Origin: a virus
Taxonomy: Duplodnaviria > Caudoviricetes
Reading direction: 5' to 3' (one strand)
DNA length: 64,000 nucleotides
IMG/VR virus record: IMGVR_UViG_3300037312_000804
Coordinates: 206 to 64,205 of that record
The notes below the pieces were generated by a model that was given only the letters and a program-made list of their open reading frames with translations, had not been told where the DNA came from and ran no database searches. This document shows positions 3,322-3,571 of the stretch, piece after piece; the stretch's first letter is position 1; the number at the start of each line of letters is the position of its first letter. Position numbers and translations under genes: made by a program.

Positions 3322-3486
3322 TGTGGTGGCCGGTGCTGATCTCCGGCTTTGGCCTGAACTACGCCCCTGTTGGGACCGACGTGGTCTGACTCCACCCGAC
3401 CTCCCGGCAATGCCGGGCATTCTGTTTTATGTCAGCGGCCACACTTTGCACACTTCGCTGCGCATCAGCACTGCGCATTCACCACA
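3322..3486 (-). ncRNA. Structured tRNA-shaped phage RNA with complementary (kissing) loops; possibly c4/IsrK-class
   Basis: Closing stem TGTGGTG/CACCACA; hairpins TGCGCA-GTGCTGA-TGCGCA and GCCGG-AGATCAGCA-CCGGC; GTGCTGAT is complementary to ATCAGCAC. The family name is from memory and unverified. Confidence 0.65.
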
Positions 3487-3571
3487 CGGAGACAGCCTGG
3501 GCTATCGAACGCAAATCGCCGTAATCAACAGTCAGGGTAAATTGAGAAACCCAAGCCGTCTCCGTGTGGTG
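3480..3571 (-). ncRNA. 24-bp hairpin overlapping the ends of both neighbouring RNA elements
   Basis: CACCACACGGAGACGGCTTGGGTT pairs with AGCCCAGGCTGTCTCCGTGTGGTG (only G.U wobbles); 44-nt AT-rich loop. Confidence 0.7.

Follow-up and report, generated by a model that had tools for sequence, protein, structure and literature searches.

The three heptamers found where two modules of a small phage RNA operon meet, one TGTGGTG and two CACCACA, probably mark a precursor-state spacer or processing hairpin and not a regulatory switch, a reading that we favour with modest confidence on the basis of folding and family comparison. Such a hairpin would be resolved by RNase P, possibly by RNase III, or bypassed by an internal transcription start. 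It stands immediately before a kissing-loop tRNA-like scaffold RNA of 165 nt (3322-3486, minus strand), whose first nucleotides it takes in, and the window (the whole stretch of DNA analysed, 64,000 nt) is an extreme case, with a full 7-nt overlap, of an accessory that is common in this RNA family, namely a leader or spacer hairpin before the scaffold RNA. The sequences, the helices, the membership of the family, the recurrence of the hairpin and the energies are established directly.

Almost all of a 64.2-kb virus record with terminal repeats is covered by the window; the record represents a podophage similar in type to Bcep22 and Ralstonia phage Gerry. The three heptamers sit on the minus strand in a 576-nt intergenic gap between a virion-protein gene (5405-3717) and a giant gene (from 3140) with a transglycosylase domain at its start, the counterpart of which is annotated as DarB-like in phage JC1. 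The equivalent gap measures just 75-85 nt in phage JC1 and in two related viral contigs, so that the RNA cluster is an insertion common only to the window and the contigs L003 and L127. L001 and L002 contain neither the RNAs nor the layout of the promoter-like element P1 described below. Only four related viral contigs were present in the collection searched, and a protein-guided scan of metagenome contigs for further relatives of the locus found none.

The cluster is a small minus-strand phage RNA operon that runs from P1 (3716-3688) to a terminator (3241-3214) between two late genes. P1, TTGCGA-N17-CATACT, follows directly after the stop codon of the virion-protein gene, and the same layout is found at the same place in L127 (TTGCGA-N17-AACACT) and L003 (TTGCGC-N17-AACACT). 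Judged from its sequence and position, P1 is likely the start of the RNA operon. It is below the threshold of the sigma-70 scan, and a sigma-70 consensus scan of 3000-3900 yields no promoter. An 11-bp palindrome (GGAACGGGGCG / CGCCUCGUUCC, window 3677-3707, minus strand) extends into the spacer as well as the -10 element of the proposed P1, and it could act as an operator, or as an RNA hairpin if transcription of the upstream gene reads through. The intrinsic terminator at the end of the operon (3214-3241, minus strand), an 8-bp stem followed by a T run, is kept in L003 and L127. A promoter-like block with the core GGCAATCTCGCGTA..ATTGCC is located upstream of the giant DarB-like gene and is kept in all four relatives (window 3168-3202, minus strand; L001 5690-5725; L003 5885-5915; L127 4905-4945, by sequence comparison).

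The positions given for the heptamers in the earlier note are exact on reading of the minus strand, with CACCACA at 3571-3565 and 3328-3322 and TGTGGTG at 3486-3480. The heptamer is not enriched over the window, as both strands of the 64 kb hold 10 copies against 7.3 expected; three copies inside 250 nt are far beyond chance. The upstream pairing is gapless from 3571:3480 to 3548:3503, which gives the 24 bp that had been claimed, around a loop of 44 nt, and it is composed of 21 Watson-Crick and three G.U pairs (3557:3494, 3554:3497, 3549:3502). In a repeat search the arms were recovered as 3480-3501 and 3550-3571, 22 nt with 91% complementarity as DNA. The folding energy of the hairpin is −51.7 kcal/mol for the minus-strand RNA (z −8.63) and −38.7 kcal/mol for the plus strand (z −5.7).

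The first seven nucleotides of the 5′ arm (3548-3571, minus strand) are the upstream CACCACA at 3571-3565, while the last seven of the 3′ arm (3480-3503, minus strand), UGUGGUG at 3486-3480, are also the 5′ strand of an acceptor-like stem. The hairpin takes in the end of the first tRNA-like element and, from the RNA that follows, the 5′ half of its closing stem, just as had been proposed, and its arms abut the end of the first module and the start of the scaffold RNA. The suggestion that the long helix is suitable for RNase III also holds for the predicted fold, which is very stable and sufficiently long: the continuous double-stranded RNA of at least about 20 bp at product boundaries that marks an RNase III stalk is found here with 24 bp and the −51.7 kcal/mol given above.

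Within the 44-nt loop (3504-3547, minus strand), the promoter-like block that precedes the DarB-like gene recurs as a degenerate copy (~3532-3501), with a 10-nt exact repeat (D6). By eye, the copy and 3202-3168 are identical at ~27 of 35 positions, and the second hexamer is damaged (TTCGAT vs TATCAT). A pattern search for this copy was not significant by itself, and the family-wide count of promoter-like sites, among the matches listed, was 29 upstream of the RNA against 40 in the control region, i.e. no excess upstream. Since there is no sigma-70 match in 3000-3900 and no such excess, the idea of a promoter in the loop draws on a single source, the decayed local repeat.

The downstream pairing of TGTGGTG with the second CACCACA is the true closing stem of the kissing-loop RNA, as the earlier note had recognised. 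A covariance model, R1, with 52 family members as seed and the window left out, matches 3486-3322 with 69.6 bits (E 4.3e-15) and aligns both strands of the stem. The match extends over model positions 1-100 of 100, and because of this full length TGTGGTG and the second CACCACA are taken as the two strands of an acceptor-like stem. R1 scores 52.4 bits in L127, whose RNA has the same ends as that of the window, and 81.9 bits in phage HK620. In the R1 alignment of the window (minus strand), the 7-bp acceptor-like stem UGUGGUG / C(A/G)CCACA (3486-3480 / 3328-3322) encloses a D-like hairpin of 5 bp with the loop GUGCUGA, 3 nt after the 5′ strand (3476-3460), a variable insert of 112 nt and a T-like hairpin of 5 bp with the 9-nt loop AGAUCAGCA, flush with the 3′ strand (3347-3329). 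From sequence reading, the two loops pair with each other through GCUGA and UCAGC (3469-3465 with 3339-3335).

This scaffold RNA is a very common phage RNA that is annotated neither in Rfam nor in the genome records examined. Its shared 3′-end pattern is matched in viral contigs (more than 120), in metagenome contigs (more than 119) and in at least 22 bacterial genomes, and the family is present in at least 250 deposited phages, including HK620 and Stx-converting phages, in which the match lies under no annotation or under 'hypothetical protein'. Rfam has no family for it, and a literature search by sequence string and keywords returned no paper on it. Lambdoid phages, of which HK620 is an example, have the scaffold RNA in the late leader, and in HK620 it is located between pR′/qut and the late terminator. 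The family samples used here come from exact-pattern scans and comprise the matches listed, for which reason the fractions given are rough.

The family plan consists of UGUGGUG, AAU, a 5-bp hairpin with the loop GGCUGA, an unconserved insert whose length varies from about 10 to 190 nt, a 5-bp hairpin with the loop AGAUCAGCA and finally CACCACA. The terminal helix is exactly 7 bp long: among the matches listed, position 1 is U:A in 140 of 150, GUGGUG is fixed and an eighth pair is possible in 85 of 150. Likewise among the matches listed, 153 of the 177 members for which the 5′ motif was the sole search criterion terminate in a hairpin plus CNCCAC. Pair counts in 52 members revealed compensatory changes in both hairpin stems, while the GCUGA and UCAGC loops are pairable in 99.6% of cells (52 members); with almost no variation there, the loop-loop pairing is without covariation. 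The pattern GGGGGTTCCCGGCCG was dropped as a search motif as it is too unspecific.

The element upstream of the hairpin, the first tRNA-like module (3565-3677, minus strand), was delimited by sequence reading and by the T-arm motif repeat family D1. Its hairpins are one of 8 bp that has a 7-nt loop, two that resemble T-arms (3638-3624 and 3592-3578) and a GGUU hairpin (3616-3599), and its 3′ end reads CCUGG and then CACCACA. The name of tRNA mimic that it had been given is not sustained by the tRNA models, none of which recognises the module; the best, tRNA-Sec at 3642-3569, reaches 17.5 bits against a cut-off of 47. R1 gave no match when run on the module, and no exact match to its 3′ end was found in viral contigs. 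An ordinary tRNA identity for the non-decoding modules was rejected, as neither ARAGORN nor Rfam calls a cloverleaf in them. Together with the hairpin, the module is an insertion relative to L127 and L003.

The sole tRNA call of ARAGORN and Rfam at the cluster is a tRNA-like gene at 3319-3246 (minus strand) with an 8-nt anticodon loop, UAGCCUUA, named 'tRNA-???' by ARAGORN and scoring 47.9 bits with the Rfam tRNA model. Sequence comparison places its homologues at 5764-5844 in L003 and 4787-4878 in L127, and the gene is conserved across the relatives with compensatory changes in its stems. The 8-nt anticodon loop is UAGCCAAU on a 7-bp stem in L003 and CUUAGUCA, accompanied by a long variable arm, in L127; ARAGORN leaves the copies of the window and of L127 unnamed. 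One possibility is that this gene descends from tRNA-Leu(UAG) and specifies a tRNA that is non-decoding or causes frameshifting. L127 has another tRNA-shaped gene at 4711-4780 (Rfam tRNA 30.9 bits), which is devoid of an anticodon because a GCAA tetraloop on a 6-bp stem caps its anticodon arm. A different tRNA-like RNA, at 899-998 of L226, has the same UGUGGUG / CACCACA terminal helix and, like the first module of the window, canonical T-arms (GGTTCAA loops), so that the acceptor sequence is common to more than one type of phage RNA.

The upstream and downstream pairings are mutually exclusive, as had been stated, since they share one strand. With the 5′ arm in the transcript, folding gives a pairing probability of 0.99 for the upstream heptamer and 5e-6 for the downstream one, while the acceptor stem reaches a probability of 0.98-0.995 in transcripts whose first nucleotide is 3530 or one further downstream. 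Enforcing the acceptor stem costs 8.7 kcal/mol, and 15 of the 17 extension pairs stay. Both modules close on themselves under this constraint, the first one via roughly 3675-3668 with 3579-3569, in line with the claim that the downstream pairing frees both. Because the extension pairs stay and the first module closes on itself, the real competition is over 7 bp only. These values come from a folding model that leaves out tertiary contacts.

By this computation the switch envisaged in the earlier note is not a balanced one, as the outcome is one-sided when the 5′ arm is present, 5e-6 against 0.99 with a difference of 8.7 kcal/mol. A two-state switch is characterised by exclusive helices of comparable stability or by a sensor; the helices here are exclusive, but their probabilities are those just given, and no sensor, ligand-binding or protein-binding element was found at the locus. 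With the downstream stem at 5e-6 as long as the 5′ arm is present, a change of state needs an irreversible event, either cleavage or a start within the loop. RNase P normally requires an unpaired leader and a formed acceptor stem, and it is this competent state that the nearest-neighbour model disfavours here.

Comparison across the family revealed that the leader hairpin is a recurrent feature. Among the matches listed, helices that include the complete heptamer and measure 16 bp or more were found in 8 of 212 distinct members and in 3 of 1060 shuffles. The strand-neutral score reached 12 or more in 18 of 212 listed members and in none of 1060 shuffles, and, with the end of the helix left free, a hairpin was present in 46 of 210 listed members and in none of 210 shuffles. 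In 45 of these 46 free-anchor hairpins from the matches listed, the helix spans the −1/+1 junction before U1, where RNase P would be expected to cut, and the overlap with the acceptor strand is 2 nt (eight times), 3 nt (once), 4 nt (15 times), 5 nt (three times), 6 nt (seven times) or 7 nt (11 times). By duplex energy, 47 of 214 listed matches lie past the 1% shuffle tail and 108 of 214 past the 5% tail. The extension sequences are unrelated from lineage to lineage, the arms differ completely in sequence and length among members, and the spacings range from 29 to 177 nt. In 14 of 18 cases, among the matches listed, a small hairpin stands flush before the 5′ arm. The helix is kept in L366 and L204, where the cargo is different.

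The leader hairpins are 94% Watson-Crick and have no clear wobble bias, and a wobble test on 42 of them (15 G.U vs 10 A.C, p 0.21) did not separate selection at the RNA level from selection at the DNA level. In HK620 the leader hairpin is imperfect and alone not significant (z −1.16). Most enterobacterial members have a 14-nt leader before U1, AGTG(C/T)(T/C)CTTTCCGT, and that of HK620 pairs imperfectly with upstream CAGGTAAGAGCA blocks. On sequence reading, these inverted blocks bracket successive RNA modules of the HK620 late leader (L469 855-945 and 1100-1212).

This distribution bears on two expectations of the earlier note. The duplicated heptamer, which homologues were expected to keep, is absent in L127 and L003; these closest relatives have neither the additional CACCACA nor the leader hairpin and retain the RNA, while leader hairpins of other sequence are present in the 46 of 210 listed members noted above. 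A switch governing the maturation of the RNAs is hard to reconcile with a family of which, among the matches listed, roughly half to four fifths are without the hairpin and about four fifths without a strong one. The absence of the hairpin from L127, L003 and that part of the family indicates that it is dispensable and not needed for maturation.

For the precursor hairpin that we favour, the enzymes, the order of events and any purpose are deduced. A transcript from P1 would include both arms, and for this reason the hairpin would form first. It would prevail in the full-length transcript, and the mature tRNA-like fold would appear only after an irreversible step, for which three routes can be envisaged. 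The last 7 bp might exchange partners at the base of the hairpin, whereupon RNase P would cut before U3486; RNase III might cut the 24-bp helix and so aid or precede RNase P; or transcription might start within the loop of the hairpin. RNase P cleavage at the 5′ end of the tRNA-like gene (3319) would define where the scaffold RNA ends, 2 nt past CACCACA. It is possible that the hairpin serves to keep the RNA inert in precursors or, alternatively, that it leaves a protective hairpin on the upstream product.

Among the other explanations, a true regulatory switch, in which the choice between the upstream and the downstream CACCACA is made during transcription or by a factor and sets the maturation of both RNAs, seems improbable. 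The computed equilibrium is as one-sided as described (5e-6 vs 0.99, 8.7 kcal/mol apart), the upstream partner is transcribed first, no ligand- or protein-binding element is evident and the layout is missing in the closest relatives L127 and L003. An exchange of partners at the open end of the hairpin would indeed be cheap, given the shared strand, the identical 7-bp sequences and the 15 of 17 extension pairs that stay, and the three-part layout with full 7-nt overlap is present in 11 members among the matches listed; the overlap of 2-7 nt, however, fits a spacer hairpin better than a tuned switch. Also in favour of a switch, the small flush hairpin before the arm resembles, in 14 of 18 listed copies, the 'hairpin plus CACCACA' of the true 3′ half. 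No more probable is a functionless by-product of adjacent tRNA-like modules with the same acceptor sequence, the 17-bp extension being a recent inverted duplication at the insertion of the first module. With the acceptor sequence shared, the 3′ strand of each module would automatically match the 5′ strand of its successor as a complement. Of the 143 matches listed, 10 have an exact CACCACA no more than 300 nt upstream and 6 no more than 300 nt downstream, where ~2.6 are expected, which fits clustered stem-sharing modules; the insertion of the first module and the hairpin relative to L127 and L003, the decayed copy of the nearby promoter-like block in the loop as a sign of rearrangement, and the 94% Watson-Crick pairing without clear wobble bias point in the same direction. 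Such a by-product does not account for long, sequence-unrelated extensions in many separate lineages, which are absent from the shuffles in the strand-neutral and free-anchor tests among the matches listed, or for hairpins that always end at the same place relative to the scaffold RNA and persist in L366 and L204 despite differing cargo.

Two further explanations are highly improbable. In a permuted or two-piece locus, comparable to circularly permuted tmRNA genes, both a T-arm-like hairpin and the acceptor 3′ strand would come from the upstream module and precede the 5′ strand, and excision of the hairpin loop would yield an RNA in two pieces. The small hairpin flush before the arm (14 of 18 cases among the matches listed) would suit this arrangement, but every such member listed keeps an ordinary downstream 3′ half, the loops of the upstream hairpins are without the UCAGC that is required for loop-loop pairing, 5 nt (CCUGG) intervene in the window between the T-arm and CACCACA, and ARAGORN and Rfam call no tmRNA, permuted or otherwise. 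We regard with equal scepticism a DNA-level inverted repeat, be it a palindrome to which a protein binds, a site of recombination or an insulator that flanks a loop promoter. On the RNA-sense strand of the window the three non-Watson-Crick pairs are all G.U, the hairpin keeps a constant position with respect to the 5′ end and the strand of the scaffold RNA, and arm sequence, arm length and spacing (29-177 nt) differ fully among members, unlike a protein site; these points outweigh for us the helix that the plus strand also forms (the −38.7 kcal/mol, z −5.7, noted above), the non-significant wobble asymmetry of the family and the promoter-like copy in the loop. A phage attachment site or a leftover tRNA fragment was rejected, as the locus lies between late structural genes and its ends are conserved as RNA helices.

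The scaffold RNA is similar to the tRNA-like domain of tmRNA in its upper-half tRNA shape, the lack of an anticodon and the large insert. RNase P cuts the 5′ end of tmRNA. Permuted tmRNA genes have the two acceptor strands in reverse order, the 3′ strand first, with removal of the intervening segment (PMC3985003). The scaffold RNA differs in having no G3.U70, canonical T-loop or fixed CCA, in the Watson-Crick loop-loop pairing that replaces the D/T contact and, with respect to permuted tmRNA, in the ordinary 3′ half that is also found downstream. An identity as one-piece or permuted tmRNA was rejected on the absence of an ARAGORN or Rfam call, the U:A at position 3 in place of G3.U70 and the absence of a fixed CCA.

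RNase III stalks, such as the stems of rRNA operons and the sites of phages T7 and lambda, are uninterrupted helices of more than 20 bp between polycistronic products, whose arms abut the mature ends. The predicted leader hairpin is likewise an uninterrupted helix of more than 20 bp between products with its arms at the mature ends. RNase III stalks pair the leader and trailer of one RNA, whereas in the leader hairpin the trailer and the leader belong to two successive RNAs; unlike the stalks, this hairpin also swallows 7 nt of a mature RNA. P4 CI RNA and the c4 RNA of phages P1 and P7 (Rfam C4, RF01695) are phage RNAs excised by RNase P, in which one short sequence is complementary to two copies in the same transcript. 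Here, too, one short sequence is complementary to two copies in the transcript, but the words belong to the closing stem of the RNA itself and to the leader hairpin, and are not antisense targets before a regulated gene. C4, IsrK, P4 CI antisense RNAs and STnc100 were rejected as candidates, with no Rfam match at E up to 10 in the window at 3000-3900 or in L367 at 3660-3930. T4 rnaC and rnaD (species 1 and 2) are small non-decoding RNAs beside tRNA genes in the T4 cluster, a setting like the present one; they differ in not being of the same sequence family, as the best R1 score on the T4 cluster is 4.9 bits and no match.

In the eukaryotic MALAT1-mascRNA system, RNase P cuts at a tRNA-like element and the 3′ end of MALAT1 is protected by a triple helix. 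By analogy, RNase P would here free a tRNA-like element and leave the upstream RNA with a structured, protected 3′ end; the protecting structure is a triple helix there and a hairpin here, and the parallel is only an idea. Extending it, the hairpin could be a lock on a phage 'pro-RNA', a proposal that we put forward tentatively and consider doubtful. In read-through or precursor transcripts, such a lock would make both the RNase P site and the acceptor strand inaccessible, and the active fold would arise only after cleavage or from a start in the loop. After the cut, the 3′ end of the upstream RNA would be recessed and protected by a hairpin, as a bacterial-virus counterpart of MALAT1-mascRNA processing. 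If the hairpin were a lock or an end-protecting device, phages would have in it a simple and new means of timing or insulating a non-coding RNA. As it overlaps the 5′ strand, the hairpin offers a concrete handle on the release of scaffold RNAs from long transcripts, and it bears on whether these RNAs stay inactive until a set time.

Some minor observations concern the scaffold RNA and its surroundings. The T-like hairpin (window 3330-3347, minus strand, and L367 3795-3812) is a weak match, 13.7 bits, to positions 30-47 of the Rfam rydB model, and the E. coli sRNA RydB might be a remnant of the scaffold RNA family. Inside the insert of the scaffold RNA of L127, at ~4608-4625, the sequence GCU AAC GAU AAC GCC UAG (ANDNA stop) resembles the tag template of tmRNA. 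A tmRNA-tag-like frame is also found in the late leader of HK620 (L469 ~993-1025), ~180 nt upstream of the scaffold RNA, where GCA AAC GAA GAA AUG UAU CUG GCC GUA GCU UAA reads ANEEMYLAVA stop.
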